Positions 3,697 through 63,269 of a stretch of DNA of 64,000 bases are shown here, piece by piece; the stretch's first letter is position 1, and each line of letters begins with the position of its first letter. The stretch spans positions 117,738-181,737 of the forward strand of contig CAVVMJ010000010.1 of assembly GCA_963749445.1 (NCBI GenBank), read 5' to 3'. The notes under the pieces are model-generated. The model saw nothing but the letters and a program-made list of their open reading frames with translations. It was not told the DNA's origin and did not search any database. A program made the position numbers and the translations under genes. Origin of the DNA: an uncultured bacterium (GTDB lineage: Bacteria > Patescibacteriota > Doudnabacteria > UBA920).

Positions 3697-3995
3697 GCAA
3701 ACAACCCAAAAATTAATGGATATCTTCGTGGTTATTCAAACCGCAGCTGACATTTATCGCTATCCGATAATTATCAGCTGGAGGTTGATGAAAGTTCCCC
3801 GCAGCAGAGCTGCGAGGTATCGACTGCATACTGGTTCCATTCCGAGCGAGTCCCAAATAGCAGCTGAGGACGAGTCGAGGAATCTGTTACTAATTTAACA
3901 GACCCCTCCGCTCCTCCTCGGATGCACTCGTCGTCGGTCGGGGTGGAGCACCCCGGAGCCCAAATTTTCGAGGAAATCTATTTGATTATACCTCG
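3697..3995. repeat. GC-rich modular repeat (family shared with 55540-55800 and the dinB insert 25330-25500)
   Basis: About 80 percent identity to 55575-55700 over the core ttccattccgagcgagt...gcagctgaggacgag.cgaggaatct...ccctccgctcctcctcg...tcgtcggtcggg...cgaggaaat. Confidence 0.7.
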
Positions 3996-6961: not shown

Positions 6962-8296
6962 TTATTGCCCCAAAGCGGCAATATCGGATTCGTATTGTTG
7001 AGTTTGCGCGATTACATTATCGCCGTAAAAACGGTAGGCGACGTTGGTGCCGCCGGAAAAATAGCGCATGGCCGCGTTCCATTCCCCCTGTTGGGTATTG
7101 TCCGCGCCGTTAGCTCTTAACTTGATGCCCGCGGCCAAAAACGCGTCGCGGATGTCCCACGGGTTGGCGGTTTTGCCGGTAACGGATGACACCTGGTCTT
7201 TATAACCCATCCAAGTGGAGGGAATAAACTGCGCCGGACCCATGGCCCCGCCCCAGCCGACCTGTTTGCCTTTGCTGTTTTTCATCGGGCAGGAAACCGG
7301 CGTCACGTCCGGGTCCAGACCAAGGTCGGAAGTAATCTGCAAAAACGGCTGGATGTCGCGATTCGGTTTCATCACCACTTTATAACTTTTTTCCGGCGGA
7401 TCCCCGGGACGATTGCAGGTGCCCACGTTTTTGCCCAAATTGGATTCCTGCGTTAAAATCGCCAAAAGGAAAGCCGGTTCCACGCCGGTCTGGGTGGAAA
7501 CAAACTGCGCGATTTTTAAGGCGTTGCCAAAAGTAATTTGAGTGGTAATGCCAAGCAAATCGTAAATCCGGTTTTGGATTTCCGCGGCCCTCCGCTTGGT
7601 ATCGTTTAAGGTAATCTGGTAATCGGACTCTTTACCTTTGGTTTGCTGCAGCAAATCGTTTTGCTGGCCCACGGTATCGCCGAGCTGCTTCTCCTGCAAA
7701 GCCTGGATGGACAGATAATTTTGCGCGTCGCTTTGCTGCTGGGTAAAATCCTGCTCCTGCTGCTGGAGCTGGGTTTTGGTATCCCGGGCCTGGATAAGCA
7801 AAGCTTTTAGATTATCGGATACGGACGCGTAATCCTGGACTTGGGTCAAAATATCCGACAAGCTGCCCTGCTCTACCACGGTATACAAAAACGGTTGGCT
7901 GTCCTGCTCGTTGATGGCGCGCACGGCACCGCCGATTTGCTGCTCCAAAAGTTCGGACTTCAACTGGTTGGCCTGGATGCCCAGCTGGGTATCGGAAATT
8001 TTTTGCGTTAAATCGGCAATTTTTAAATTACTGGCCTGGATTTGCAGCTGCAAACTGGCCTGCTGTTTTTTCAGGCTGTTAAGTTTGTTCTGTAAAGTAT
8101 TTTTTTCGCCCTGGATAACGCTCAGCTGCTGCTGGAACTGATCGATTTCCTGCTGGATGGCCTGCAGCTGCTGCTGAAGCTGCGCCTGGGTGGCCGCGGT
8201 ACTGGAAGCCTCGTCCGCGCGGATAATAACCGGGGCGAATAAAAAAATGCTGATGGATAACAGGACTATTAATTTGGAAGTTGTATTACTGGGCAT
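6962..8296 (-). CDS. secreted coiled-coil protein with C-terminal SLT/MltB-like lytic transglycosylase domain
   Basis: Signal peptide, a Q/L-rich heptad region, then LAILTQESNLG (catalytic Glu-Ser) and GAMGPAQFIPSTW motifs. Confidence 0.7.
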   Translation of the reverse strand: MPSNTTSKLIVLLSISIFLFAPVIIRADEASSTAATQAQLQQQLQAIQQEIDQFQQQLSVIQGEKNTLQNKLNSLKKQQASLQLQIQASNLKIADLTQKISDTQLGIQANQLKSELLEQQIGGAVRAINEQDSQPFLYTVVEQGSLSDILTQVQDYASVSDNLKALLIQARDTKTQLQQQEQDFTQQQSDAQNYLSIQALQEKQLGDTVGQQNDLLQQTKGKESDYQITLNDTKRRAAEIQNRIYDLLGITTQITFGNALKIAQFVSTQTGVEPAFLLAILTQESNLGKNVGTCNRPGDPPEKSYKVVMKPNRDIQPFLQITSDLGLDPDVTPVSCPMKNSKGKQVGWGGAMGPAQFIPSTWMGYKDQVSSVTGKTANPWDIRDAFLAAGIKLRANGADNTQQGEWNAAMRYFSGGTNVAYRFYGDNVIAQTQQYESDIAALGQ

Positions 8297-17212: not shown

Positions 17213-18158
17213 TTATAATTTTACAATTACCCTTAATTTCCCCGGCTTGCTTCTCGGGTTTTTGTTTATTTCTTCGGCTGATGCAGTAACCGGCTTTTTG
17301 GTTAAAATTTTCCCCCGCGGATTCTTGCCGCAAACGCAATGGGAAAATCCGGCGGACAAACGCATCCTTTACTCAATCCCGAAAAAAATTGTTTAACCAT
17401 CCTGTCTTCCAAAGAATGGAACGAGACCACGGCCAAGCCTGCCCGCCCGGAACCAACAAGTCAAACGCTTTTGGCAAAAATTCTTCCAAACTCTGCAATT
17501 CCTGGTTAACCTCTATCCGTAGCGCCTGAAAAATTCTCCGCGCGTGGTCGTCGGCCTTATGCTTAACCGGTTTCGGCAGCGCGTCTTCTATAATTTGATA
17601 AAAATCAGTTGTATATTTTATTTCTTTTCCCTTATCTCTATTCTCTATAACTTTTTTAGCAATTTGATGGCTGAATTTTTCCTCCCCATAATCTTTAAAT
17701 ATTTTAATCAACTCTTGTTGGTAAATAACTGTTAACAATAACTTCGCGTCCTTAAGCGTTCGGCTTTGGTCAAACCGCATATCCAGCTCTCTTTTTTTTG
17801 GAAGCACATCGCGGCCCGCTTTTCCAGTTCATGGGATGATAACCCCAGATCCGCCACTATCCCGCTGATATTGTAAACTGATGATGTTCAACAGTTCTGT
17901 CTATCTGCGCAAAATTCCCTTGTACAATTTCCACCCTTCTCCCTCTGGGAGAGGGTCAGGGTGAGGGATTTGAAATTCTCAATAGCATCTTGATCCAAAT
18001 CGATCGCTAAAAATTTCCCATCTGGCTTTATCTTTTCCAAAATTGCCGCCGTGTACCCGCCCCCGCCTAATGTCGCGTCAACAAAATTCTTGCCGGCTGA
18101 GGATCCAAAAACCCAATAACCTCATTAAGAAAACCGGAACATGGTTATAATTTATCAT
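17213..18158 (-). pseudogene. rsmH: 16S rRNA m4C1402 methyltransferase RsmH, interrupted by about 7 frameshifts
   Basis: Eight collinear segments in alternating frames: MINYNHVPVFL / LNEVIGFLDPQP / GKNFVDATLGGGGYTAAILEK...SQREK / VEIVQGNF... / GIVADLGLSSHELEK / AGRDVLPKKRELDMRFDQ...FQALRIEVNQ...LLVPGG / [19 protein letters not shown]... / [27 protein letters not shown]. Confidence 0.7.
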
Positions 18159-19575: not shown

Positions 19576-19589
19576 ATCTTGGGCAATAC

Positions 19590-19782
19590 TGCGGAGCCTT
19601 CTCCCCTACATTGATACACATCAAGAACGAGGGGAGATGCCCCGAGTGCATCCGAGGGGCAGAGAGGTGTTTTATTTCCCAGAGCCACCTCTCTGTCACC
19701 GAAAGCGATGTTGTCCTTATGACTTTCGGTGACATCTCCCCTCATGCGCTGTATTGCTCACTAAGGGGAGAAGGCTCCGCGG
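19590..19782. repeat. GC-rich nested palindromic element (gene-less member of the family that carries the DUF559 genes)
   Basis: Outer 17-bp inverted repeat gcggagccttctcccct / aggggagaaggctccgc. Inner repeats gaggggagat/atctcccctc and gcagagaggtg/cacctctctg. Shares ctcggatgcactcgg and the ggctccgcgg end with 48448-48931, 59521-59600 and 3900-3960. Confidence 0.7.
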
Positions 19783-24322: not shown

Positions 24323-25834
24323 TCATAGCTCTTTGACGCGCCCAAAACCCACCGAGTCGCGGAAGGCTTTGCCGGCGGCCATCATTTGCGCCCGCAAAAC
24401 GGTAAATTCCCCGTATTTGTCGTTAATGTCATCCAGCGCTGCCACCAAAGCGCGCTGCCGCTCAATATCGCCGAATAAAGACATCTGATGAATATACGGG
24501 CGCAGGCCGGCCACGGTTACGCCGATCAATTTTATCCCTGCGACATTTATCGGATATATCCCCGTAGGGGCGGGTTTCAAACCCGCCCCTACGCCGGGCT
24601 TAATCATTTTTAGGCATTCCAGGAAAATCTCCCGCCCGTCCTGCAAAAAATATCTCAACTTTTTGCTGTCGCCGAAACCCTGATAATCTTTGTCGTGATA
24701 ATAACAGCTGATGACATTCCCCATTAACTGTTTCTTGCGCAACCGCCGGCCCACCATTTCGCAAAGCTTGTACAGCACGGGCACAAAAAATTCCGGTTTG
24801 CGGAATTCCTGCGGCAAGGTGTACATATGTCCCATGGATTTGATTTCTTGTTCCTGATGAACCTCGGCTTTCCAAGTGCCTTCCAGTTGGCCGAGATTAT
24901 ATAAATGATGACCCGCGACCCGACCAAAACGCGCCACCAAGTGGCTGCGAGGGAAATCCCGCAAGTCTTTTAAGGTTTTGATCCCCAGCTCGTTTAAATT
25001 CCGCTCCTGCCGCCGCCCGATGCCCGGGACGTCGGTAAGTTTAAGCTGATGATACAAATCACCCTTAGATAAAACAAGGCAATCGGCGCTGTAGGGGCGG
25101 ATATCATCCGCCCTTTGTCGTGGGAGGATAATATCCTCCCCTACGCAACCATTGTGAATCACCGTCAACCCATCCGGTTTTTTTAAATCCGACGCAATCT
25201 TGGCCAAAGCCTTATTATCGGCAATCCCAACGCTGCACCTGAGCCAATCCCCAACTTCGGTTTTAAACCGCCGCTTTATTTCCCGCGCAATGTTTGCCGC
25301 CTCTTCAAAGGGATCAATCGAAAATTGTCCCATCCCGACCAACGAGTGCATCCGACCCGTTCGGTTCAACTCAGGGTCGCCCTGAGCGTAGCCGAATGGG
25401 CGAGGAGTGGAGGGATCTGTCTGATATAATAGATCCCTCGGCTCATCCTCAGGTGCATTCGGATTCGCTCGGGATGGCGAAAAAAAATTCCTAACATTGC
25501 ACACCCTCGTCAAATCCAAAAAACACTCGTCAATGCTGTACTTTTCCACCTTGTCCGTATAATCGCCCACGACTTTTAAAAACCTCCTGGTGTAAAACCG
25601 GTATCGTTCGGCGTGAGTTTGGGTCAAAATAATCTTAGGATATAACTTTTTGGCTTCCCACACCGGCGTGCCGGTTTTGATGCCCCATTTTTTGGCCTCC
25701 ACAGACGCCGCGATAATAATGCCGCCCAAATGCTCGCACACGCCCACGGGCTTTCCGCGCCAACTCAAATTATCCTGCTGCTCCACAGAGGCAAAATACG
25801 AGTTCATATCCAGATGCATTATTATGGACTGCAT
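24323..25834 (-). CDS. dinB: DNA polymerase IV (Y-family) carrying three in-frame palindromic insertions
   Basis: MHLDMNSYFASVE...SIDECFLDLT...CSVGIADNKALAKIAS...; 503 aa against the usual ~360. The extra segments coincide with the repeats at 24563-24591, 25091-25144 and 25330-25500. Confidence 0.8.
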   Translation of the reverse strand: MQSIIMHLDMNSYFASVEQQDNLSWRGKPVGVCEHLGGIIIAASVEAKKWGIKTGTPVWEAKKLYPKIILTQTHAERYRFYTRRFLKVVGDYTDKVEKYSIDECFLDLTRVCNVRNFFSPSRANPNAPEDEPRDLLYQTDPSTPRPFGYAQGDPELNRTGRMHSLVGMGQFSIDPFEEAANIAREIKRRFKTEVGDWLRCSVGIADNKALAKIASDLKKPDGLTVIHNGCVGEDIILPRQRADDIRPYSADCLVLSKGDLYHQLKLTDVPGIGRRQERNLNELGIKTLKDLRDFPRSHLVARFGRVAGHHLYNLGQLEGTWKAEVHQEQEIKSMGHMYTLPQEFRKPEFFVPVLYKLCEMVGRRLRKKQLMGNVISCYYHDKDYQGFGDSKKLRYFLQDGREIFLECLKMIKPGVGAGLKPAPTGIYPINVAGIKLIGVTVAGLRPYIHQMSLFGDIERQRALVAALDDINDKYGEFTVLRAQMMAAGKAFRDSVGFGRVKEL

Positions 25835-28059: not shown

Positions 28060-28140
28060 ATATTTTTATTTCGTTAGATTAATTTTGATTTATTATAGGA
28101 TAGTTTGTCGCAAATAGCAAATTCCACGCTCTTCACGACG

Positions 28141-28230
28141 AAATTGCGAGGAGCCGGGGCTTTATCCGGCGACGAAGCAATCCCGATAAATATCAACTGG
28201 GCTGCTTTGGATGCACTCGCAGCTTCCATT
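28141..28230. mobile_element. MITE family 2 copy (AAATTGCGAGGAGCC.GGGCTTTATC.GGCGACGAAGCAATCCCGATA ... GCACTCGC)
   Basis: Shared 50-nt 5' block with the copies at 31240, 38811 and 31498 (inverted). Confidence 0.75.
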
Positions 28231-31239: not shown

Positions 31240-31336
31240 GAAATTGCGAGGAGCCAGGGCTTTATCTGGCGACGAAGCAATCCCGATATTTTTTGGGATT
31301 GCCGCGCCCCTCGCTGCATCGGGGCTCGCAATTTCC
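31240..31336. mobile_element. MITE family 2 copy
   Basis: gaaattgcgaggagccagggctttatctggcgacgaagcaatcccgata...ggctcgcaatttcc. Confidence 0.8.
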
Positions 31337-31344
31337 ACTAATTT

Positions 31345-33225
31345 TCAAACTGATTTTCTAATATCTATAATCCGCAGTTTCGCCTGCTCGTATCCATTCC
31401 ATCCGTCGCGGATGAGTTCCGCCGCAACGTCTACATTATCGCCCACTTTTAAAGTTTTGGCAAAATCGCCGCAGTTGAACATTATGGCCGGTATGATGAG
31501 CCTTGTCATTCCTGAAATCGCGAGTGCAGCCGAAGCGATCCAGTTCTTTAGCAGGATTGCTTCGCCCTCGGCTGCACTCGGGCTCGCAATTTCATCGTTT
31601 GAGCTTAACTGCATCTGCAAGTGCTGCTGGCTAGTTCCAACCAGCCGGACGGAATTGATTTTTAAATTGCGGATGAGAAACTTGGGTTTGGGGTTGCCCA
31701 CGCCGAGGGGCTCTAATTGCTGCAACAATTGACAATTAACAATTGACAATTGACTGCCATCCAGTTCTGCTTCCAATAATAACTGATGATGTAAATCAGT
31801 TTCAGAAAGGCTTGCCTCCGCGTACTCCAAAATCTTTTTATAAAATTCCTCGTATTCCGCGGTTTTCAAAGTCAGTCCCGCGGCCTGCTGGTGCCCGCCG
31901 AATTTTACAAGATGTTCGGAAGCAAATTTTAATGCCTCAATAATATTAAATTCCCCAACCGTGCGCGCCGAGCCGGTAGATTCCGTTTCCCCTCTATCTA
32001 AAATAATCGTCGGCTTGTAAAATTCTTCCGCAATGCGACCCGCCACCAAACCGACCACGCCTTTGGGCCAATCCCGCCCTAGCAGAATCAAAACTTTGCG
32101 GTCTTGGTATTTTACCGCCTGCTCGCGCGCTTCACTTAGCAACTGCCCGGTCAAATCCTGCCGGCGGCGGTTAATTTGCTCCAAGGCCAAGGCTTTTTGC
32201 TGGGCGGCCAACGCATCGGTTTCCATTAAAAGATGTAGGGCGACATTGGCGTGCTCCAACCGGCCCGCGGCATTCAGCCGCGGCGCAATGATAAAGCCAA
32301 GTGTATAAGTATCCATCGGTTTCCAGAAGGCGCCCTCTTGCAGACCGGCTGATATCATCAGCGCTTTCAAACCAACCCACCGCGTCTTAGCCAAAACCTT
32401 GAGCCCGTATTTTACCAAAATCCGGTTTTCGCCGAGCAGACTGTGGCAGTCCGCCACCGTGCCGATGGCGACAAGGTCTAACAGCCATTTTTCCCATCCT
32501 TGAATAACGGATGATCCGCGTGTAAATCCGCGTAGCCGATCCGCGTGTAAATCCGCGGCGCGCAGCAACCCACAGGCCAATTTAAACGCCACGCCCACCC
32601 CAGTTAAGTCGTGATACAGATATTTGTCGCCTGAATTTTTTGGATTTATCAGCGCGTAGGCTTTCGGCAGTTCGCCGATGATTTCATGGTGATCGGTAAT
32701 GATTAAATCGATATTGTTCGCGCGACAAAAATTAGCGGCGTCAACCGAGTTTGTGCCGCAGTCAACGGTAATGATTATCCTTGATCCTCCATCCTTAATC
32801 TTTGACAATGCGTCAACGTTGACCCCATAACCTTCGGCAAACCTGTCGGGGATGTAACTTTCAACCTCAACGCCCAAATAACGAAACGTTTGCTGCAACA
32901 CGGCATTGGCCGTAACCGCATCCGCGTCGTAGTCGCCATAAATACAAATTCGCTGATGTTTATCAATCGCTTCCCAAATCCTGTCCACCGCCTTTTGCAT
33001 ATCCCCAAACAAAAACGGGCCATGCAAATTTTCATACTTGGGATATAAAAATTCCTCAATCTGATTTTTCTCGGTTAATCCTCGATTAAACAACAATTGA
33101 GACAACAATCGCAAATCCCCTTCCCCTCTGGGGGAAGGTGGCCGGAGGCCAGATGAGGGTTCTCTGTGAATATTTGTCTGATTTTCGCCAAAATCTCTTC
33201 CGTCACCTGCGATTTTAGTTTCCAA
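31345..33225 (-). CDS. recJ: single-stranded-DNA exonuclease RecJ (DHH/DHHA1), with in-frame MITE family 2 copy near the C-terminus and a disturbed N-terminus
   Basis: DHH motifs (ITVDCG...ITDHHE). Residues DEIASPSAAEGEAILLKNWIASAALAISGMTR are encoded by repeat 31498-31596. A GC-rich repeat at 33110-33170 separates an upstream MPKNWKLKSQVTEEILAKI segment in another frame. Confidence 0.75.
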   Translation of the reverse strand: METKIAGDGRDFGENQTNIHREPSSGLRPPSPRGEGDLRLLSQLLFNRGLTEKNQIEEFLYPKYENLHGPFLFGDMQKAVDRIWEAIDKHQRICIYGDYDADAVTANAVLQQTFRYLGVEVESYIPDRFAEGYGVNVDALSKIKDGGSRIIITVDCGTNSVDAANFCRANNIDLIITDHHEIIGELPKAYALINPKNSGDKYLYHDLTGVGVAFKLACGLLRAADLHADRLRGFTRGSSVIQGWEKWLLDLVAIGTVADCHSLLGENRILVKYGLKVLAKTRWVGLKALMISAGLQEGAFWKPMDTYTLGFIIAPRLNAAGRLEHANVALHLLMETDALAAQQKALALEQINRRRQDLTGQLLSEAREQAVKYQDRKVLILLGRDWPKGVVGLVAGRIAEEFYKPTIILDRGETESTGSARTVGEFNIIEALKFASEHLVKFGGHQQAAGLTLKTAEYEEFYKKILEYAEASLSETDLHHQLLLEAELDGSQLSIVNCQLLQQLEPLGVGNPKPKFLIRNLKINSVRLVGTSQQHLQMQLSSNDEIASPSAAEGEAILLKNWIASAALAISGMTRLIIPAIMFNCGDFAKTLKVGDNVDVAAELIRDGWNGYEQAKLRIIDIRKSV

Positions 33226-38810: not shown

Positions 38811-38896
38811 TGAATTTGCGAGGAGCCAGGGCTTTAACTGGCGACGAAGCAATCTCATTAAATATTGGGATTACTTAGGCTGCACTCGCAATTTCA
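38811..38896. mobile_element. MITE family 2 copy
   Basis: gaatttgcgaggagccagggctttaactggcgacgaagcaatctcat...ctgcactcgcaatttc. Confidence 0.8.
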
Positions 38897-40416: not shown

Positions 40417-41433
40417 TCAACTTTCTTTTTTTGCTGCCTCCCGCAACACCCGTGCCTTGACTTTTTCATCCGTGATTTTTATCGGGACAAATTTTTTCAG
40501 CTTCTTAAGTTGCGCTTCCATCTCCCGCTTGGTCAAAAGCCCGGCCTGCGGCCCGACCTGCTGGACCACCGAGCCGGCATTTATGGGCCCCCAGCGCAGA
40601 GCTTCTTTGTGGGGCAAACCGTGCGCTAACGCCGCAATGTAGGCGGTAGTAAAAGCATCGCCCGCACCAGTGGCCTCAAGGCACGGCCCGGGATATTCCG
40701 GAATATAATAAAACCCTTCCTTGGAATAACTGTAAGCGCCGGCGCGGCCGTCAGTCAAGGCCACGGCTCTTGGACCCAGTTTGACCAAAGCGCGGCACAG
40801 GCTTTCCGGATCGCGGCCACTTTCGCCGACCCAACTTTGGGCTTCTTCCACGTTGAGCGACAGCAAATCCGTGCGCTTGAGCATCAATTCATTGGCCTTA
40901 GCTCCGGCCCGCAACTGGAAAGTGCCGGGATTAAATCCCAACTTGGCCTTGTAACGGTCAACATACCTGGCCAAATCGTGGTAAACGGTTTCAAACCCTT
41001 GGCCCATGCTCGTTAAATAAATCCAACCGGAGTGGACAAAATCGGGCAACTGATATTTGCGGTGCTCGTGGTAAACAAAAATCGTACGCTCGCCCTGGAA
41101 ACTTAACACGGTTGAGGCGTTAGTCGGGTGCTTGTCGTTTTTAATGATGTAGCGCGTGGACACGCCTTCTTTTTCCATTTTGTGCACGATTTCCCGGCCG
41201 CCGGTGTCATGCGCCACCACGCAATAATAAGCGGCGTTCAGCCCCAAGCGCGAACTGCCCACGGCGTTATTGGCCGCGTTGCCGGCCACGGTCCGGTAAA
41301 ACTTGTCCACCGGCAGCTTGTCGCCCCAGCTGATCACCGCTTTTTTTTCTCCGCCCATTTCCTTAATTTCAATATCGTGCACAATCAAAAACGTGTCAAT
41401 GGTCGGGTCGCCGATGGAAATAATGTCAAACAT
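40417..41433 (-). CDS. PfkB-family carbohydrate kinase (ribokinase-like)
   Basis: ...ATGAGDAFTTAYIAAL... anion-hole and GAGD motif. Confidence 0.75.
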   Translation of the reverse strand: MFDIISIGDPTIDTFLIVHDIEIKEMGGEKKAVISWGDKLPVDKFYRTVAGNAANNAVGSSRLGLNAAYYCVVAHDTGGREIVHKMEKEGVSTRYIIKNDKHPTNASTVLSFQGERTIFVYHEHRKYQLPDFVHSGWIYLTSMGQGFETVYHDLARYVDRYKAKLGFNPGTFQLRAGAKANELMLKRTDLLSLNVEEAQSWVGESGRDPESLCRALVKLGPRAVALTDGRAGAYSYSKEGFYYIPEYPGPCLEATGAGDAFTTAYIAALAHGLPHKEALRWGPINAGSVVQQVGPQAGLLTKREMEAQLKKLKKFVPIKITDEKVKARVLREAAKKES

Positions 41434-41443
41434 AGGTTAGTGA

Positions 41444-41490
41444 ATTAGTGAATTAGAGAGTTTACGTTCTAATTCTCTAATTCTCTATTT
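41444..41490. repeat. gtgaattag-word hairpin
   Basis: gttagtgaattagtgaattagagag...ctctaattctctaatt; related copy at 62613-62684. Confidence 0.65.
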
Positions 41491-41503
41491 TTCTTTTTAC
41501 TGA

Positions 41504-41701
41504 TTAATACCTGCTATACATCCCAAAACACCCGGCGCCAGCGCGGCCGTCAAGATTATCGCGGACATAATTGACGGCAAAAAAACTGACCAAAATAATC
41601 AGCAATAAGCCTAGCACTATATCGGACACGCTGTAATAAATCACAAACTTGGCTTCCGGCCTGTCTTTGTGCATATGCTTTTTGTGGACAAATTTGAGCA
41701 T
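41504..41701 (-). CDS. small membrane protein, hypothetical
   Basis: 65 aa, one TM helix. Confidence 0.35.
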   Translation of the reverse strand: MLKFVHKKHMHKDRPEAKFVIYYSVSDIVLGLLLIILVSFFAVNYVRDNLDGRAGAGCFGMYSRY

Positions 41702-43653: not shown

Positions 43654-44242
43654 CCAGTCCCCTCCTGGAACAGGAGGGGTGTCACCCGAAGGGTGACGGG
43701 GTGGTAGACACTATTTGAGATGACTTTTAATTTCTTCAATAATTCCGTTTAGATTATTCAAAACATCTTTATTCTGAAATCTGATGATTTTTATATTCTG
43801 ACTTTGTATAAATTCCGTCCGTTTTTGATCGTAATCGTAGGCTTCAGAACTGTCATGCGTACCGCCATCCAGTTCAATGCCCAGACGCTCATTAGGACAG
43901 TAAAAATCAAGAGAATATTGACCAACACCATATTGTCTCCTAAATTTTTTGCCGAGTTTGGACCCTTTCAATTCCCTCCATAAGATAATTTCCGGCAGAC
44001 CGAGGTTATTTCTAAGTTTCTTGCGTAAATCTTTGCGGCTGACATTGTTATATAAAAAGTCCATCTGTCTGCCGTTATTAGGGCTATACGCGGAGCATTC
44101 TCCTCCTATTTCAGGAATATCATCAGAATATAGGAGGGGTGCCCCGCCTTTGGCGGGACGGGGCGGTAATTTTATGAATTGCTGATGTCTACCACCTCCC
44201 CCCGCTTCGCGGGGTACTCCTCCTGTTCCAGGAGGAGACTAC
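43654..44242. mobile_element. GC-rich TIR element carrying DUF559 endonuclease gene (copy 1)
   Basis: Left end ccagtcccctcctggaacaggaggggtgtcacccgaagggtgacggggtgg. Right end ccacctccccccgcttcgcggggtactcctcctgttccaggaggagactact. Terminal inverted repeat tc.cctcctggaacaggagg. Confidence 0.7.
43711..44064 (-). CDS. DUF559 (Vsr-like restriction-endonuclease-fold) protein
   Basis: ...LWRELKG...FRRQYGVGQYSLDFYCPNERLGIELDGGTHD...IIRFQNKDV... is the PF04480 pattern. Confidence 0.75.
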   Translation of the reverse strand: MDFLYNNVSRKDLRKKLRNNLGLPEIILWRELKGSKLGKKFRRQYGVGQYSLDFYCPNERLGIELDGGTHDSSEAYDYDQKRTEFIQSQNIKIIRFQNKDVLNNLNGIIEEIKSHLK

Positions 44243-44563
44243 TTAACTCCGTTTTGTCGTTATTTGATAATTTTTCTTTCTGAAACGGCGGATGACAAGT
44301 AAAATTATAAAGCTAATTAAAATCCAAAAAAATAAATTAAGGAATAAAACTGATAAATCACCCAAAAATAATTCGTGATTTTTAAAAGGGAACCCAAAAT
44401 CATATATTTTAGGGCAAGGCCCCAAAAAGCAATCAGGCTGATAACTGTTCAAAGTCAGAAGACTGGCGACGACATCAATCAAAAATCCCAACACCACGCT
44501 CCACGCCGCCAAACCGGTTTTTGACTGTAAGCTGAAGATTTTCATGTTTGTTTCTGCCGTCAA
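44243..44563 (-). CDS. hypothetical membrane protein
   Basis: 106 aa, 2-3 TM helices. Confidence 0.4.
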   Translation of the reverse strand: MTAETNMKIFSLQSKTGLAAWSVVLGFLIDVVASLLTLNSYQPDCFLGPCPKIYDFGFPFKNHELFLGDLSVLFLNLFFWILISFIILLVIRRFRKKNYQITTKRS

Positions 44564-44566
44564 TTG

Positions 44567-45250
44567 TTAATTGTTTCCGCCAGAGGCGGATCCGCCTTCG
44601 GCGGAAATCGTCAATTGTTGATTTAGTTTTTCCCAAGCATCCGCCATATCCGGCGCTCTGATGAGGGCGCTGCCGACTACTATTAAATCCGCCGAGGCAT
44701 GAGCGACTTTTTTAACATTCCCGATATTTATGCCGCCATCTACCTCTATTATAGCATTGGGAATTAACTTTCTCAAAGCCGCGACGCGCTCTAAGGTTTC
44801 CGGAATGAACTCCTGACCCTGGTAACCAGGAACCACCCCCATAATTTGAAAATGATGGACGATTTTTTCCAAATCCTTAAGCACCTCCACCGGCGTGCCG
44901 GGATTAATGGCAACGCCCGGTTTAATCCCCTCGGCCGTTATGGCCGCAATGGCCTCATGCAGGTCGCGCGAATTGTCAAAGGATTCGTAATGCACCAAAA
45001 CCGTGCCAAAACCCGCCATTTTGTAGTCAAACATCTCTTTGGGTTCTTTGATCATCAAGTGCGCTTCCCATTCAAACGCCGGGTTCAGGCCGTCCATGGC
45101 GGTTACCGGCAACAGCTTGCGGTCAATAAACGCGCCGTCGCCGAAATCCACCTGGACGCGTTTGACGCCGGGCAGTTTGGTGACGCGGGAAACTTTATCC
45201 AAAAAGGCTTCCGAAGTTTCCTCTAAAATTGCGGGGACGATTTGGGGCAT
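44567..45250 (-). CDS. rpe: ribulose-phosphate 3-epimerase with repeat-encoded C-terminal tail
   Basis: MPQIVPAILEE...VDFGDGAF...; the last ~16 aa (LTISAEGGSASGGNN) are encoded by hairpin 44558-44622. Confidence 0.85.
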   Translation of the reverse strand: MPQIVPAILEETSEAFLDKVSRVTKLPGVKRVQVDFGDGAFIDRKLLPVTAMDGLNPAFEWEAHLMIKEPKEMFDYKMAGFGTVLVHYESFDNSRDLHEAIAAITAEGIKPGVAINPGTPVEVLKDLEKIVHHFQIMGVVPGYQGQEFIPETLERVAALRKLIPNAIIEVDGGINIGNVKKVAHASADLIVVGSALIRAPDMADAWEKLNQQLTISAEGGSASGGNN

Positions 45251-45258
45251 AAATAATG

Positions 45259-45360
45259 CGATACCAATATACTAATGCATGCGAATGATACGAATAATAC
45301 CAATCTTAAATCGTATTCGTATTATTTGTATCATTAGTACCATTCGTATATTAGTATCAT
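45259..45360. repeat. tacgaata/ctaatg-word palindrome
   Basis: ataccaatatactaatgcatgcgaatgatacgaataatacc...tcgtattcgtattatttgtatcattagtaccattcgtatattagtatcat. Confidence 0.65.
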
Positions 45361-45812
45361 TTAAAACTCTGCTGCTCTATCCTTTTTATCTTATCTATTC
45401 TCCGCTGATGCCTGCCGCCTTCAAACCCGGTCTTGAGCCACAAGTCCACCGCCGCTTTGGCCTGCGCAACGCTGACAAATCCAAAACCCAAAGACAGCAT
45501 ATTGGCGTCATTGTGCTGCCGGGCCAGTTCAACAATTTTTAAATCCCCGCCCTGGTACAACGCGCAGCGGATACCCCGAACTTTGTTGGCCACTATGGCT
45601 TCGCCGTTGCCGCTTAAACCCAAAACTATTCCGCGGTTACCGTCCACCGACGCGGTTTTAACCGCGCACGGATAAATAAAATCCGGATAGTCGTCGTCCT
45701 TGTCATATTTAAACGGCCCAACATCCTCAACTTCCAAATTCTGCTCCTTAAGGTATTGGCAGAGCGTATTTTTTAATTCAAACCCGGCGTGGTCGCTGGC
45801 GATGTATATCAT
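45357..45812 (-). CDS. rpiB: ribose-5-phosphate isomerase B
   Basis: MIYIASDHAGFELK...GIVLGLSGNGEAIVANK... Confidence 0.85.
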   Translation of the reverse strand: MIYIASDHAGFELKNTLCQYLKEQNLEVEDVGPFKYDKDDDYPDFIYPCAVKTASVDGNRGIVLGLSGNGEAIVANKVRGIRCALYQGGDLKIVELARQHNDANMLSLGFGFVSVAQAKAAVDLWLKTGFEGGRHQRRIDKIKRIEQQSFK

Positions 45813-45893
45813 GTTAGCGTTTAGCGTTTAGCGTTTAGCGTTTAGCAGTCCACTGTGTGGCTAAATGCTAATCGCTAATTGCTAACTGCTAAT
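45813..45893. repeat. ttagcg-word palindrome
   Basis: gttagcgtttagcgtttagcgtttagcag tccactgtgtgg ctaaatgctaatcgctaattgctaactgctaa; a related copy lies at 63270-63362. Confidence 0.7.
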
Positions 45894-46575
45894 AATTGAT
45901 TATCTGATTAAAGTACAAAGGCACTAAACTCGCTCCCCCAACCAACAAACCGTCAACGTTGTGCTGTTTTAAAAATTCCGCCGCGTTGGCCGCGTTAACG
46001 CTGCCGCCGTACAAAACTTTTTTGATTTGGTATTTGGTCTTAATGAAAATCGCGATTGATTCGGCGTGCTCGGGCGAGGCGTTTTTGCCGGTGCCAATGG
46101 CCCAGACCGGTTCGTAAGCGACGACGACCGATTCCGTGTCAACTCCGGCTAAATCAATATCCAGCTGGCTCTTTAAAATATCCGTAACTTCCAATTCGTC
46201 ATCTTCTACCGTGGTGCCGTACCCTACGCAGAGGATGGGAATAATTTTATGGCTGATGAGTGTCCGCAATTTGGCGTTAATCTGCTCGTCACTTTCTCCG
46301 GTACCGCGCTTTTCGCTGTGGCCGACGATGCAATACTTTATGCCCAAATCATTCAGCTGCAGCGGACTAGTCTCGGCTGTGAACGCGCCCTTGTCCTGCC
46401 AAAAACAATCCTGCGCGCCTAAGTTTGGATAATCTATCCGCGATAAATAAATGGTCGGCGGGCACAGCACCACCTTATTTTTCGCCCGAACGGAAATTTC
46501 CGCCGCCAGTTTTTGGGCGTCTTTGAGCGTAGTGGGATTTAATTTCCAATTGGCTACTATTAATTTTTTTGACAT
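45889..46575 (-). CDS. tpiA: triosephosphate isomerase
   Basis: LIVANWKLN...IVGHSEKR...AYEPVWAIGTGK... Confidence 0.9.
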   Translation of the reverse strand: MSKKLIVANWKLNPTTLKDAQKLAAEISVRAKNKVVLCPPTIYLSRIDYPNLGAQDCFWQDKGAFTAETSPLQLNDLGIKYCIVGHSEKRGTGESDEQINAKLRTLISHKIIPILCVGYGTTVEDDELEVTDILKSQLDIDLAGVDTESVVVAYEPVWAIGTGKNASPEHAESIAIFIKTKYQIKKVLYGGSVNAANAAEFLKQHNVDGLLVGGASLVPLYFNQIINY

Positions 46576-46590
46576 AGGATAAATTTACAT

Positions 46591-47031
46591 CTAAAGATCC
46601 ATTTTCGTCGGCGGGGTCAGGGAAATTGTATTTCCAAACTTTTTCAGTTCTTTCCGTAAATCATCATTGACCTCCCGCGCCAAGACCCACAAGCCGATGT
46701 TGCCGACGCTAAAATACAATACCTCCTCTACGGGCTCAACTAAATTCACGGTAAGCAAGTGGCGAAAAATCAGGCTGACCACCGCCCCGATAATGGAAAT
46801 TACGCCGAGCAGCCAGACCGCCCCCTGCTGCCTCAGCTTTGGCAAAAACAATCCCGCGCAAATACTGCTTATGCCGATAATCAAATGCAAAAAATTCTGC
46901 GTATCGTTAAGCCACCATTGCTGCCCGAATACGCTGTCCTGCGGCGTCGGCCCCAAAATATGCACAAACCCCAAAATGCCCAAACCCACCGCCCCCGCCC
47001 CGGCCAAAATCAAATAAAATTTTGTGCTCAT
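46591..47031 (-). CDS. hypothetical membrane protein
   Basis: 146 aa, 4 TM helices. Confidence 0.45.
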   Translation of the reverse strand: MSTKFYLILAGAGAVGLGILGFVHILGPTPQDSVFGQQWWLNDTQNFLHLIIGISSICAGLFLPKLRQQGAVWLLGVISIIGAVVSLIFRHLLTVNLVEPVEEVLYFSVGNIGLWVLAREVNDDLRKELKKFGNTISLTPPTKMDL

Positions 47032-47054
47032 ATTGTTTATCGATAAATGTTAAA

Positions 47055-48050
47055 TTATGTTTCACCTCTCAAAAACTTCGCCGTCACTTCCGGCGGCATG
47101 GGGTTGACCGGGATGCCGGTGGCGAATTCAAAGCCGGCCCAAATGGTGATGCGCGGAAAAATCGTCAGGTGCCAGTGGAACGCCCTTTCCTCCTGCGCCG
47201 CGTGCTGGTGGTCTTTTTTGTTGGGCATATTGTGGATGTAAAAATTCAAGGGCGGGTCGGAAAGTTTGGTGTAAAGCTGGCCGAGCGTAACTTTTAAGAC
47301 GAACGACAAATGCTTAATCTCATCTTCGCTCATATCCTCAAACCGCGCGCCGTGCTTTTTGGGCAAAATCCAGGTCTCAAACGGGCAGCGGCTGGCGTAA
47401 GCAGAAATCACCACAAAATGTTCGCTCTCGTGCACCAGGCGGTCCTTGACCGCCAGCTCTTCCTTAATAATATCACAATAAATGCAGGAACGGTTGTTTT
47501 CGTAATAGTGATAGCAACCTAAAATTTCGCTGTGGATGTGGGGCGGCACAATGGGCGTGGCCAGCAATTGGTAGTGGGGATGGATGATGCTGGCGCCGGC
47601 GTCGCGGCCGTGGTTGTGGAAAATCTGCACGTAAGCCAAGCTAGGATCTTTGCTTAAATTGTTTATGCGGTCAATGAATGTCCGAATGGTCAATTCAACA
47701 GTGGCGATGGATTGCAAAGCCACCGGCTCGTTGTGTTTGCGCGTGATGATTACCTCGTGGTCGCCGTCGCCGCTGTGCGAAACGTAAAAATCCTTGTGCC
47801 GATACACGGCCGTGCTTTCCAAAGCCGAAAACTTATTTGGGATAATTCGGATTTCCCAGTCTTTGCCTTTGGGCACGCGCAAAATTTCCGGACTTTTATC
47901 CTCGTTGCCCGGACAAAACACGCAAGAACTGTCCTGCTCGGGCACGCCGAACATCACGGAATACGTTTTGTACTCATCCGGCCGTTTGTTCCTGGCTGGC
48001 GCGATGAGCACCCAGTTTTTAGTTATTGGATTTTGCCGGAATTCACTCAT
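47055..48050 (-). CDS. galT: galactose-1-phosphate uridylyltransferase (HIT family)
   Basis: ...CVFCPGNE...IIHPHYQLLA... (HxHxQ). Confidence 0.8.
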   Translation of the reverse strand: MSEFRQNPITKNWVLIAPARNKRPDEYKTYSVMFGVPEQDSSCVFCPGNEDKSPEILRVPKGKDWEIRIIPNKFSALESTAVYRHKDFYVSHSGDGDHEVIITRKHNEPVALQSIATVELTIRTFIDRINNLSKDPSLAYVQIFHNHGRDAGASIIHPHYQLLATPIVPPHIHSEILGCYHYYENNRSCIYCDIIKEELAVKDRLVHESEHFVVISAYASRCPFETWILPKKHGARFEDMSEDEIKHLSFVLKVTLGQLYTKLSDPPLNFYIHNMPNKKDHQHAAQEERAFHWHLTIFPRITIWAGFEFATGIPVNPMPPEVTAKFLRGET

Positions 48051-48431
48051 CTATTTTTTATTTTTGTCTAGGTAATTTTGCAAAATTATTTGCGCAGCCA
48101 AACTATCAAGATTTTTATTTTCACCGATGATGTTCTGGGCCATTTGCGATGATAATCTTTCATCCATAATCTCCACCGGCAAGCCAGTCTCACTTTCCAC
48201 TTTCAACTTGAAACTTTTAACTTCTTCCGTTTTTTTTGTTTCCTTGCCGCTCATATTCAGCGGCCAGCCCAGAACTATTAAACTTATTCGCTGATCACTT
48301 ACCAGCTTATTAACTTGCTCCCAAAATTCTTTAGGCGATAAAATCGTAAGTTCACGCGCCAGGGTTTGGGACTCATCGCTAATGGCTAACCCAATCCGCT
48401 TCTCTCCGTAATCTATTCCAAGTATTTTCAT
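48051..48431 (-). CDS. ruvX: Holliday-junction resolvase-like RuvX/YqgF
   Basis: MKILGIDYGEKRIGLAISD... Confidence 0.8.
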   Translation of the reverse strand: MKILGIDYGEKRIGLAISDESQTLARELTILSPKEFWEQVNKLVSDQRISLIVLGWPLNMSGKETKKTEEVKSFKLKVESETGLPVEIMDERLSSQMAQNIIGENKNLDSLAAQIILQNYLDKNKK

Positions 48432-48447
48432 AAGTTTGTCCGGGCTA

Positions 48448-48931
48448 TCCGCGGAGCCTCCCCTCCTGCCAAGGAGGGGTGTCACCCGAAGGGTGACGGG
48501 GTGGTTGGAGTTTGCTAAAAATGCTTCCTGATTTCCATAAGCACTCCCTCAATATTATTTATAATGTCTTTATTTTCAAACCTGATAACTTTTATTCCTT
48601 TTCCGTTTATATAACCAGTCCTAATTTGGTCGTTTTGGTATCCTTGCCCCGTGTCATGCGGCGAACCGTCCAGTTCCACAGCCAATTTTTTTCCAGAACA
48701 ATAAAAATCCAAAATATAATTTCCTACACTATGCTGTCTTCTAAACTTTTCCCCCGGCTGGCTGTTTTTTAAATAAGACCAGGGCCTGGCTTCGGCGGGA
48801 GTAAGGCTCTTACGCAGCTGTTTACGATTATTTTTGAGTCCAATCAGATTATTTAATCGCTTGGTCATGCTCCAACCACCTCCCCCGCTTCGCGGGGTAC
48901 TCCTCCTCTGCAAGGAGGAGAGGCTCCGCGG
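48448..48931. mobile_element. GC-rich TIR element carrying DUF559 endonuclease gene (copy 2)
   Basis: Left end ccgcggagcctcccctcctgccaaggaggggtgtcacccgaagggtgacggggtggttgg. Right end ccaaccacctcccccgcttcgcggggtactcctcctctgcaaggaggagaggctccgcgg (~30-bp TIR). The internal block ggaggggtgtcacccgaagggtgacggggtgg is identical to copy 1. Confidence 0.75.
48515..48868 (-). CDS. DUF559 (Vsr-like endonuclease-fold) protein, copy 2
   Basis: MTKRLNNLIG...ARPWSYLKNSQPGEKFRRQHSVGNYILDFYCSGKKLAVELDGSPHD...VIRFENKDI...; the ORF-track N-terminal extension is the translated TIR. Confidence 0.7.
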   Translation of the reverse strand: MTKRLNNLIGLKNNRKQLRKSLTPAEARPWSYLKNSQPGEKFRRQHSVGNYILDFYCSGKKLAVELDGSPHDTGQGYQNDQIRTGYINGKGIKVIRFENKDIINNIEGVLMEIRKHF

Positions 48932-55539: not shown

Positions 55540-55800
55540 CCTTTTCCGCCCAATGGATCCTCCCCTGCGGCAGAACTGCGAAGTAACATCTGCATTTTGG
55601 TGTTCCATTCCGAGCGAGTTCGAATGCAGCTGAGGACGAGCCGAGGAATCTATCACTTTTACAGATCCCTCCGCTCCTCCTCGCCCATTCGGCTCCGCTC
55701 AGGGCGACCCTGAGTTTATCGAACGGGTCGGATGCTACTTAGTCGTCGGTCGGGATGGAACATCCGGAACAGAATTCCGAGGAAATATTCTTGATTACAA
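55540..55800. repeat. GC-rich modular repeat (same family as 3697-3995; carries the extra module that is also present, inverted, inside dinB)
   Basis: gttccattccgagcgagttcgaatgcagctgaggacgagccgaggaatct...ccctccgctcctcctcg + module cccattcggctccgctcagggcgaccctgag... + tcgtcggtcgggatgga...cgaggaaatattcttgatta. Confidence 0.75.
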
Positions 55801-59520: not shown

Positions 59521-59730
59521 ATGCTGATGTTTCGACCTCTCTGTCCCTCGGATGCACTCGGGACATCTCCCCTCGCCAGGGGAGAAAGGCTCCGCGGTTC
59601 CGCGTCTTTCCGCGTAGTAATCAGCGACCGTTCAGCGGAACTAGCGCCCTCACCCGCCCCTCGGATGCACTCGGGGCACCCTCTCCCCGCCTGCTGGCGT
59701 GGCGAGGGGAAATAAGATATTCGCTTCAGC
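59521..59730. repeat. GC-rich element fragments (half-copy of the 19590-19782 element plus ctcggatgcactcgg modules)
   Basis: ctctgtccctcggatgcactcgggacatctcccctcgccaggggagaaaggctccgcgg matches the right half of 19590-19782. Confidence 0.6.
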
Positions 59731-62612: not shown

Positions 62613-62684
62613 AAAAATAGTGAATTAGTGATTTAGAGAATTAGCGAACTAGTTTTCTAATTCTCTAGTTCTCTAATTTTCTTG
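62613..62684. repeat. gtgaattag-word palindrome (rplR-rplF spacer)
   Basis: gtgaattagtgatttagagaattagcgaactagttttctaattctctagttctctaatt. Confidence 0.65.
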
Positions 62685-63269
62685 CTACTTACCGCCTCCC
62701 ACAACCTTAACCACTTTCCCCGCTTTGCGGCGCACGACTTCATCGGAATACTTAATTCCTTTACCTTTGTACGGTTCCGGCTTTTTAAGCTCGCGGACAT
62801 TGGCTGCAAACTGGCCGACTTTTTGCTTGTCCGCGCCGAAAATGCTGATGGTATTTTTGTCAACCGCAATGGTCAGATCCTTGGGTACCTCAACCACCAC
62901 GGGATGGGAAAAGCCCAAAGACATCGTGAGTTTGCCGGGAGTCGCGGCAACCTTAAAACCCACGCCGATAACTTCCAACTTCTTTTCATAGCCTTTGGTA
63001 ACCCCGTCCACCATATTCTGGATCAAAGAGCGGAACAGCCCCCACAAGGCGCGCTCTTTTTTAACGTCCTGTTTTTGCACGCCGATCAAAACTTCCTTTT
63101 CGCCCACGCTGACGGAAACGTCCGGATGAATGGCCAAAGTCAAAACGCCCTTGGGGCCGGTGACGGTTAAAGTCTCTTCTTTTCCGGCGGAGCCGGATCC
63201 CGCTCCGCGGGACTTTTCTACCTTCACGCCGGAAGGAATGATGACTGGTTTTTTTCCTATTCTGCTCAT
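62685..63269 (-). CDS. rplF: 50S ribosomal protein L6
   Basis: MSRIGKKPVIIPSGVKV... Confidence 0.9.
   Translation of the reverse strand: MSRIGKKPVIIPSGVKVEKSRGAGSGSAGKEETLTVTGPKGVLTLAIHPDVSVSVGEKEVLIGVQKQDVKKERALWGLFRSLIQNMVDGVTKGYEKKLEVIGVGFKVAATPGKLTMSLGFSHPVVVEVPKDLTIAVDKNTISIFGADKQKVGQFAANVRELKKPEPYKGKGIKYSDEVVRRKAGKVVKVVGGGK

Follow-up and report, generated by a model that had tools for sequence, protein, structure and literature searches.

YcjD-family nuclease genes are associated with BoxC/PIT/TM triplex-motif repeats in a Doudnabacteria contig and across bacterial phyla

Results

Two nuclease genes lie between inverted GC-rich units

The stretch of DNA analysed here (the window) comprises 64,000 nucleotides from an uncultured bacterium of the Patescibacteriota lineage Doudnabacteria (contig CAVVMJ010000010.1), and it contains two small elements in which a single open reading frame (ORF) for a DUF559/YcjD-family nuclease is set between inverted, GC-rich units. 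Both ORFs encode intact DUF559 nucleases, matching Pfam PF04480 with E values of 5e-27 (ORF 1) and 4e-28 (ORF 2). An initial annotation had described the two genes, each within inverted repeats, and had read them as a selfish nuclease cassette, and that reading proved largely right. It had not recognised that the terminal inverted repeats (TIRs) are triplex-motif repeats known across bacterial phyla, which changes the meaning of the finding. The features of the two elements are as follows.

43660–43705, plus strand: 3′ triplex-motif unit of element 1, with the same 32-nt block as the 3′ unit of element 2
43711–44064, minus strand: DUF559 ORF 1 (117 aa, P0241), a divergent paralogue with 47% identity to ORF 2 and intact catalytic residues
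44089–44167, plus strand: extra terminus (CGCGGAGCA) and unit with a long loop 1 in element 1, between the outermost 5′ unit and ORF 1
44191–44236, minus strand: outermost unit of element 1, on the 5′ side of the ORF, of the AGGAGGAG/GAGGTGGT type
48449–48458, minus strand: outer terminus of element 2, 3′ side in ORF sense (GGCTCCGCGG), 17 nt ahead of the ruvX ATG
48461–48505, plus strand: 3′ triplex-motif unit of element 2, which reads forward as CCCTCCT..AGGAGGGG, mini-hairpin GTCACCCGAAGGGTGAC, GGGGTGGT
48515–48868, minus strand: DUF559 ORF 2 (117 aa, P0001), YcjD family, with an ATG start and conserved catalytic D54/E65/D67/H71
48875–48919, minus strand: 5′ triplex-motif unit of element 2, an nhmmer match; Y block TCCTCCT, R1 AGGAGGAG, mini-hairpin CCCCGCGAAGCGGGG, R2 GAGGTGGT
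48922–48931, minus strand: outer terminus of element 2, 5′ side in ORF sense (CCGCGGAGCC), pairing with 48449–48458

The inverted units are about 45 nt long. The left ends of the two elements (43660–43705 and 48461–48505) have an identical 32-nt block, ggaggggtgtcacccgaagggtgacggggtgg, in common, and the right ends (44191–44236 and 48875–48919) are imperfect reverse complements of the left ones. The motif CCTCCTN5AGGAGG occurs three times where 0.04 occurrences are expected, which bears out the proposal that the two elements share their ends, and the GGCTCCGCGG termini proposed for the second copy were found at 48449–48458 and 48922–48931. Read in the sense of its ORF, element 2 opens with the CCGCGGAGCC terminus, followed by the hairpin CTCCTCCT..AGGAGGAG, the mini-hairpin CCCCGCGAAGCGGGG, GGAGGTGGTTGGAG and then directly the ATG; the R2 block of this 5′ unit provides a Shine-Dalgarno-like GGAGGT about 10 nt upstream of the start codon. 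A few nucleotides past the stop codon come CTCCAACCACCCC, the mini-hairpin GTCACCCTTCGGGTGAC, the hairpin CCCCTCCT..AGGAGGGG and the GGCTCCGCGG terminus. An inner extension of the inverted repeat, GGTGGTTGGAG (48500–48510), pairs with 48870–48880. The reading frame of ORF 2 runs on to 48934 in the program-made list of ORFs. Element 1, which had been annotated as a single ORF-enclosing element, does enclose its ORF but is composite: upstream of ORF 1, 44089–44167 and 44191–44236 together make a complete nested pair that faces inward and encloses no gene.

Both ORFs are co-oriented with the neighbouring genes. The nuclease is the sole ORF of its element, no transposase ORF of the DDE, serine, tyrosine or HUH type is present, and no recombinase gene lies beside either element. 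Target-site duplications, which the initial annotation had suggested looking for, were not seen at any of at least six junctions read by eye. At the Rfam gathering score only a tRNA was found in the whole window, and a search with the element at E ≤ 10 gave a best, sub-threshold value of E = 4.9. No intrinsic terminator or promoter was called on any unit; the lack of terminator-like calls follows from the lack of a U-tail, since no T-run lies 3′ of the units.

The protein is a Vsr-fold nuclease

An AF2 model of the protein (pLDDT 81) has as its best Foldseek matches 3HRL (E = 4e-7) and the catalytic domain of I-Bth0305I (3e-5), followed by Vsr, and a sequence search returns the same top two, 3HRL (E = 3e-17) and the I-Bth0305I homing-endonuclease catalytic domain. 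The catalytic residues, whose integrity the initial annotation had left to be checked, are intact, and D54, E65, D67 and H71 are invariant across 32 homologues. By its Pfam family, predicted fold and catalytic residues the protein is a bona fide DUF559/Vsr-fold PD-(D/E)XK nuclease. The dN/dS ratios of 0.06–0.17, together with saturated synonymous sites, indicate that the proteins are functional and the copies old. The DUF559/YcjD family is large, with 8,161 clusters at 50% identity (E ≤ 1e-10), and a search for phage carriage found no relatives among viral contigs.

I-Bth0305I (PDB 3R3P), a Vsr-fold homing endonuclease, shares with the window proteins its catalytic fold and the character of a selfish nuclease gene with presence/absence polymorphism. 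It differs in residing in a phage group I intron and in carrying a large extra DNA-binding region, whereas the window genes are free-standing, repeat-bounded and encode one 117-aa domain. Escherichia coli YcjD (b1289) and Neisseria gonorrhoeae NGO0050 (PDB 3HRL) are 44% and 41% identical to the window protein and equal to it in length, and YcjD and a gonococcal homologue with 44% identity to it likewise adjoin triplex-motif units. These genes differ from those in the window in being single-copy, in having no clean inverted pair of units around them and in lacking the outer termini.

The flanking units are repeats of the BoxC/PIT/TM class

Each unit combines a block of pyrimidines with the purine block complementary to it; a small variable hairpin follows, and then a purine block in mirror repeat (CCCCTCCT..AGGAGGGG..GGGGTGGT). 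An alignment of units from the window and related loci gives the consensus CTCCCCTCCTT-loop-AAGGAGGGG-TG-(variable hairpin)-GGGGTGGT(T). The second block (R1) is the Watson-Crick complement of the first (Y), and the third (R2) mirrors R1, with T, or sometimes A, opposite A, in keeping with the G.G:C, T.A:T or A.A:T triplets by which intrastrand-triplex repeats are defined. A strict scan of the 64 kb for three blocks of 7 nt in this arrangement found four units, all flanking the two ORFs, against 0.04 in shuffled sequence. Covariation was assessed in 228 non-overlapping units gathered by a profile search that imposes no mirror constraint. Where R1 position 18 changes from A to G, the Y partner is C in 22 of 22 units and the R2 partner is G in 17 of 21, against 0 of 142 otherwise (Fisher, 1e-19); where R1 position 21 changes from G to A, R2 has A in 20 of 29 units against 0 of 137 (3e-19). 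The covarying variants are drawn from 11–13 different loci. In the 5′ units of the window, Y, R1 and R2 have changed in concert (TCCTCCT/AGGAGGAG/GAGGTGGT), so that R2 becomes a good Shine-Dalgarno sequence.

This order of blocks (Y, loop, complementary R, loop, mirror R) is that of the BoxC/PIT (potential intrastrand triplex)/TM repeats known from E. coli as well as from other bacteria (Bergler 1992; Hoyne and Maher 2000; Holder et al. 2015, PMC4666352), for which the E. coli consensus (TMECO) is CCCTCNCCC N3-6 GGGNGAGGG N3 GGGNGAGGG (Holder et al. 2015, PMC4666352). Like those repeats, the window units are GC-rich, dispersed, mostly intergenic and multi-copy, and they are found singly or in inverted pairs that face inward and combine two distinct unit types. 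By architecture they belong to the BoxC/PIT/TM class, and from the compatibility of their blocks they are predicted to fold into an intrastrand triplex. The TMECO consensus itself is not matched by the ORF-flanking units, which have other block sequences (CCCCTCCT/AGGAGGGG/GGGGTGGT) and a second loop of 12–20 nt, usually a co-varying mini-hairpin, where E. coli has TTA or CCG. The copies in the candidate phyla radiation (CPR) also add the outer CCGCGGAGCC termini, and the window pairs enclose a gene, whereas mobility-type genes were never found near the repeats in published work (Holder et al. 2015, PMC4666352).

Altogether the window holds five units at the two genes and, elsewhere, one pair and two solo units:

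19589–19782, no strand assigned: gene-less inward-facing pair of the TCTCCCCT/AGGGGAGA/AGAGAGGT subfamily, with termini CNGCGGAGCC...GGCTCCGCGG and a 15-nt centre
59535–59597, minus strand: solo unit of the same subfamily as that pair, ending in a GGCTCCGCGG terminus
59647–59710, minus strand: solo unit whose blocks CCCTCTCCCC and CCCTCACCC (the complement of GGGTGAGGG) match E. coli TMECO/BoxC, with a degenerate R1

Among the window units only the last has TMECO-like blocks, CCCTCTCCCC and GGGTGAGGG being those of E. coli (consensus from PMC4666352). The initial annotation had taken the first two loci for MITE-like (miniature inverted-repeat transposable element) derivatives of the nuclease elements. 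The first is indeed an inverted pair; the second is a single unit plus a terminus, and neither is demonstrably a deletion derivative, both belonging to another sequence subfamily (TCTCCCCT/AGGGGAGA) than the units that flank the two ORFs. They do carry additional GGCTCCGCGG termini, at 19773–19782 and 59588–59597. As single-stranded DNA the pair folds with −56.6 kcal/mol (z = −9.6 against shuffles). Synteny at the pair was examined through its SpoU methylase neighbour, and relatives have another upstream gene and no pair, so they offer no clean comparison of an empty with a filled site.

The stem of the second-loop mini-hairpin also co-varies (columns 25 and 34, with G/C/T and C/G/A in matching proportions), often around GAA- or TTCG-type loops; about a quarter of the units have only TTA-like second loops, as in E. 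coli type A. Such hairpins could work in mRNA, as stabilisers, processing sites, terminators or insulators or by occluding the ribosome-binding site, with the likeness to triplex repeats being incidental, and the inner stem that pairs the Shine-Dalgarno/AUG region with sequence just past the stop codon, as well as the co-orientation of the ORFs with their neighbours, would suit such an expression device. We nevertheless consider it very improbable. PIT elements had neither promoter nor terminator activity in published tests (PMC4666352), and most units, among the metagenome matches listed, are solo and far from any such ORF. The arms of one element are inverted repeats at the DNA level, asymmetric, non-palindromic loops included, and the third block co-varies as a mirror repeat and not as a Watson-Crick partner, for which a pure RNA structure was rejected. 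Because of these DNA-level arms, because purine-motif triplexes do not form in RNA (PMC4666352), and because the units have no Rfam match and no T-run or terminator-like call, we read them as DNA elements. Mismatches in hairpin 1 are G:T in about 45 cases and A:C in about 55, a tally that gives no sign of one particular strand folding.

The repeats accompany the gene across bacterial phyla

Homologues were collected with an alignment of close homologues as the query and one genome per species. This gave 80 loci, 78 of which were analysed, from more than 10 phyla, including Patescibacteria, Nitrospirota, Nitrospinota, Bacteroidota, Beta- and Gammaproteobacteria, Spirochaetota, Planctomycetota and Acidobacteriota; proteins at the homologous loci are 50–74% identical to the window protein. 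A unit lies within 300 nt of the ORF in 74 of the 78 loci. Units are 34-fold enriched in this range, at 4.1 per kb compared with 0.12 per kb at distances over 500 nt. The arrangement met most often has a forward unit before the ORF and a reverse unit after it; this reverse unit begins 9–36 nt past residue ~115 in 25 of 35 cases and often holds the stop codon. Units also adjoin a Deinococcus plasmid gene and an N. gonorrhoeae homologue that shares 44% identity with YcjD, and beside a Picosynechococcus plasmid gene there are weaker units with 5-nt blocks, recognised by eye only; the three genes differ in the orientation of their units. YcjD-family genes are thus associated with triplex repeats across phyla. 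A search of the literature found no paper linking DUF559/YcjD with triplex repeats; the search covered searchable text, with subscription-only literature outside it.

In E. coli the distance from ycjD (117 aa) to TMECO #9 (1,351,204–1,351,239 in Table 1 of Holder et al.) is 168 nt. The stop codon of the gene falls within a degenerate unit, which is followed by a partial duplicate of the 3′ end of ycjD. In the K-12 locus (L082, ~7290–7370, minus strand) this partial duplicate and a degenerate repeat fragment occupy the space between ycjD and TMECO #9, and the duplicate may be the scar of an earlier event at the locus. BoxC was reportedly first described in the 1992 paper on envM (fabI), and fabI is the next gene downstream.

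A metagenome scan for the canonical unit gave at least 120 loci (726 kb, 149 units). Among the matches listed, most units are gene-less, occurring solo or as inward- or outward-facing pairs, and DUF559 is the sole gene family seen between units; in one locus (L150) a 770-nt segment between two inward-facing units contains no convincing ORF. Contigs often end exactly at units, among them those of L003, L218 and several genome loci; multi-copy repeats would be expected to have this effect, so copy numbers from draft assemblies are underestimated.

Repeats of this kind might simply invert the ORF between them, or act as hot spots that trap small foreign genes by chance. Proteins annotated as DUF559 domain-containing are 14-fold enriched among predicted targets of programmed inversion (PMC9881135), and the repeat loci are rearrangement-prone (PMC4666352). 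The first of these observations is the expected product of flanking inverted units. Among the metagenome matches listed, only one gene family is seen between units. There is no recombinase beside either window element, and the left type (AGGAGGAG), the right type (AGGAGGGG) and the polarity of the ORF are conserved in the window, L092 and L002, so that we regard inversion or chance capture as extremely improbable.

The repeat-bounded cassette differs between genomes and sites

Four paralogues (P0001, P0241, P0016 and P0019) are all recorded on a 372,259-bp contig, most likely one and the same, and the P0019 copy (L001) is built in the same way but from other block sequences. In a syntenic relative (L092) more than 10 genes are in the same order, and htrA is separated from ruvX by 1 nt with no units between them, while in the window the gap is 507 nt and consists of 6 nt, the 483-bp element and 17 nt. 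The presence/absence difference at a conserved site that characterises homing genes is thus found at htrA–ruvX, empty in L092 and filled in the window; two other relatives (L003 and L219) have a cassette upstream of ruvX too. A gene 81% identical to ORF 2 lies at a third site (L085). Two loci labelled Thermodesulfovibrionales (L009) and Nitrospinota (L010) have unrelated flanks and a common 463-nt segment that is 98% identical, beginning ~10 nt outside the left unit and ending ~8 nt outside the right one; a further locus (L016) has the same left boundary. These boundaries indicate that the repeat-bounded cassette is the unit that was transferred, and in general what varies from genome to genome and from site to site is the cassette together with its units. 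In most loci the GC content of the ORF is lower than that of its surroundings. The initial view of a selfish, movable cassette therefore stands, on the empty htrA–ruvX site, the differing sites and the 98%-identical cassette; homing, which it had also proposed, is unproven.

The units themselves behave as a set. Between the two window elements the 5′ units are near-identical and the blocks of the 3′ units identical, although the ORFs are only 47% identical with saturated synonymous sites, which points to homogenisation within the genome or to a shared trans-acting reader. The left AGGAGGAG and right AGGAGGGG types keep their places relative to the ORF in the window, L092 and L002, and E. coli pairs likewise always consist of two different unit types. 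In L218 (84% protein identity) the 3′ unit is identical and all three blocks of the 5′ unit have switched together; this joint switch and the unit identity argue for selection on the compatibility of the three blocks.

We favour, with a probability of about one in two, a cognate nuclease–repeat model in which these elements are selfish YcjD-family nuclease cassettes bracketed by inverted BoxC/PIT/TM units. The nuclease would recognise the flanking units by structure or by sequence and nick or cut there, and host recombination and repair would then copy or relocate the cassette. Copying is assigned to host repair because the protein is a Vsr-fold hydrolase without strand transfer, there is no target duplication and there is no transposase. 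Gene-less solo units and pairs would be non-autonomous relatives or targets of the cassette, as repetitive extragenic palindromic sequences (REPs) and REPINs are to the REP-associated tyrosine transposase (RAYT). In the CPR copies the ORF would lack a promoter of its own, sitting between co-directional genes, with the purine block of the 5′ unit doubling as the ribosome-binding site.

What moves could be the whole cassette or the ORF. The unit-free empty site in L092 and the boundaries of the L009/L010 segment, which takes in both units and ~10 nt beyond, would favour relocation of the whole cassette, and the exact bracketing of the ORF by inner repeat ends and the exchange of occupants at one site would favour homing of the ORF. 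In a stricter form of the latter, which we consider unlikely, the ORF alone would move. The nuclease would make its cut in the middle of an empty inward-facing pair, and repair from a filled pair would bring in the ORF; the units, having themselves spread by another route, would provide the homology arms. This form would explain why the CPR ORF fits so exactly between the inner repeat ends (GGTGGTTGGAG-ATG...stop-CTCCAACCACC). Empty inward-facing pairs with centres of 15–29 nt do occur in the window, in E. coli (16–27 nt, from the coordinates in Table 1) and in metagenomes, and the closest solved relative of known function is a homing endonuclease. The site between rpe and tktN, moreover, is occupied by different paralogues in two genomes: the occupants in the window and in L092 are 50% identical where the flanking TktN proteins are 77% identical, and the L092 occupant is 73% identical to the htrA–ruvX copy of the window. 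Against homing into existing pairs stand the absence of any units at the empty htrA–ruvX site and the inclusion of both units in the L009/L010 segment, and no case was found of an orthologous site that is filled in one genome but has an empty pair in a second.

Quite unlikely, in our view, is a role for YcjD-type proteins as host-serving, structure-specific nucleases that process or remove repeat triplexes or hairpins during replication, in which case they would be ordinary, vertically inherited genes and the flanking units would reflect autoregulation or hitch-hiking and not mobility. The stalling of polymerase by triplex repeats in vitro and their link to instability (PMC4666352), strong purifying selection, chromosomal positions conserved among related species and a single fixed copy in E. 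coli would all fit. Patchy presence (62% of E. coli genomes), several divergent paralogues in each small CPR genome, ORFs that in most loci are poorer in GC than the host locus, the recurrence of a near-identical cassette in unrelated surroundings and insertion into a 1-nt intergenic gap do not. In two ycjD-less E. coli genomes, O157:H7 and O127:H6 (L083 and L084), the interval between sapF and fabI holds an RND efflux locus resembling eefRABC in place of ycjD and BoxC; no repeat lies at this replacement junction in the two genomes inspected, and the junction is thus uninformative on mechanism.

Several observations weigh against the selfish-cassette model itself. The action of the nuclease on the flanking repeats is an inference, and a hydrolytic nuclease is by itself unable to integrate DNA. 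Outside the CPR and Nitrospirota clades the orientation of units relative to the ORF is not fixed, being outward in Deinococcus and direct in Neisseria. Synonymous sites are saturated between all CPR copies, which means no recent movement in this lineage, and related species have many of the loci in syntenic positions, a sign of vertical inheritance. E. coli ycjD is a single-copy gene at a fixed site, present in 3,378 of 5,426 complete genomes and missing from 38%, and in the ycjD-less genomes among the rows sampled the extra matches to a BoxC-containing query persist. Finally, among the metagenome matches listed only three units, in two loci, have a DUF559 neighbour, leaving about 98% of units without one. 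Taken with the 74 of 78 loci in the flank scan, this ~2% in the reverse direction means that nearly all genes of the clade have units and few units have a gene, as is the case for RAYTs and REPs.

Discussion

The system resembles REP/REPIN–RAYT in several respects: one small gene is flanked by inverted, hairpin-forming repeats, by far the most repeats are singlets or doublets without a gene, target duplication is absent, and the repeats are homogeneous within a genome, with a hint of paralogue-specific subfamilies in a contig that has four paralogues and at least three block subtypes. In its behaviour it is also like a free-standing homing endonuclease gene. It is not a member of the REP/REPIN–RAYT class. 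RAYTs are HUH/Y1 enzymes resembling the IS200/IS605 transposase TnpA, and the window protein is a hydrolytic Vsr-fold PD-(D/E)XK nuclease with no HUH tyrosine transposase at the locus; the REP is a simple palindrome and the window repeat a three-block triplex motif. Terminal inverted, hairpin-forming ends and short gene-less derivatives are also features of TIR transposons with their MITEs and of IS200/IS605 elements, the latter likewise making no target duplication. The window cassette differs from all of these in having no DDE, serine, tyrosine or HUH transposase, its only ORF being the nuclease, and with inverted ends but neither a duplication nor a transposase ORF it is not a TIR transposon or MITE.

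The association may point to the enzyme behind the triplex repeats, the origin of which has gone unexplained for some 30 years. Catalogues of BoxC/PIT/TM repeats go back to the 1990s; the repeats occur in hundreds of bacterial genomes and have been linked to genome instability, with no known function, origin or mobilising enzyme, and physical association now gives both the repeats and the DUF559/YcjD family an obvious candidate partner. Tentatively, YcjD-family nucleases could be the missing trans-acting partners of these repeats in all bacteria, in a relation like that of RAYT to REP but with a Vsr-fold enzyme that recognises a triplex or mirror repeat, and they may create, spread or homogenise the repeats and cause the instability seen at them. 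The question is testable in E. coli K-12, with its one ycjD gene and 23 repeat sites. If true, this would be a second and mechanistically different example, besides REP/RAYT, of a domesticated or selfish gene with dispersed palindromic repeats, and it would account for the DUF559 genes among predicted inversion targets.

Other repeats and neighbouring genes

Other small repeats occur in the window. A GC-rich palindromic insert at 25330–25480 lies in frame in a dinB/IMS-family polymerase ORF (24323–25834, minus strand), whose Pfam IMS domain spans 209 residues for a 148-position profile; related pieces lie at 3900–3960 and 55650–55770, and the insert resembles the in-frame palindromic elements of Rickettsia. 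A second GC-rich family, GAAATTGCGAGGAGCC...GGCGACGAAGCAATC, is found at 28140–28200, 31240–31335, 31513–31593 and 38812–38896. Its copy at 31513–31593 lies within the recJ ORF (31345–33225), where the RecJ_OB match is apparently split in two stretches. The mini-hairpin loop TCGGATGCACTCGGG is common to the triplex-motif units and other GC-rich repeat families, with eight matches (3918, 19641, 25341, 25459, 31519, 31568, 59548 and 59661) against 0.07 expected, which suggests that small elements exchange modules. In L219 (2965–3075), a solo triplex-motif unit upstream of ruvX has a CATTCGGCT..CTCAGGG..CCC(C/T)GAG element nested in its first loop, and the same element occurs in the window at 25368–25407 and 55677–55716.

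In L092 another small restriction-fold gene (PDDEXK_3, 122 aa; 17771–18139) sits between gap and pgk in a row of glycolytic genes. AT-rich, low-complexity palindromes (such as gttagcgtttagcg...gctaaatgctaatcgctaa) fill many intergenic gaps of the window, among them 45813–45890, 45255–45350, 41429–41509 and 62617–62697; they look like the ordinary intergenic hairpins of this genome and are unrelated to the GC-rich units.

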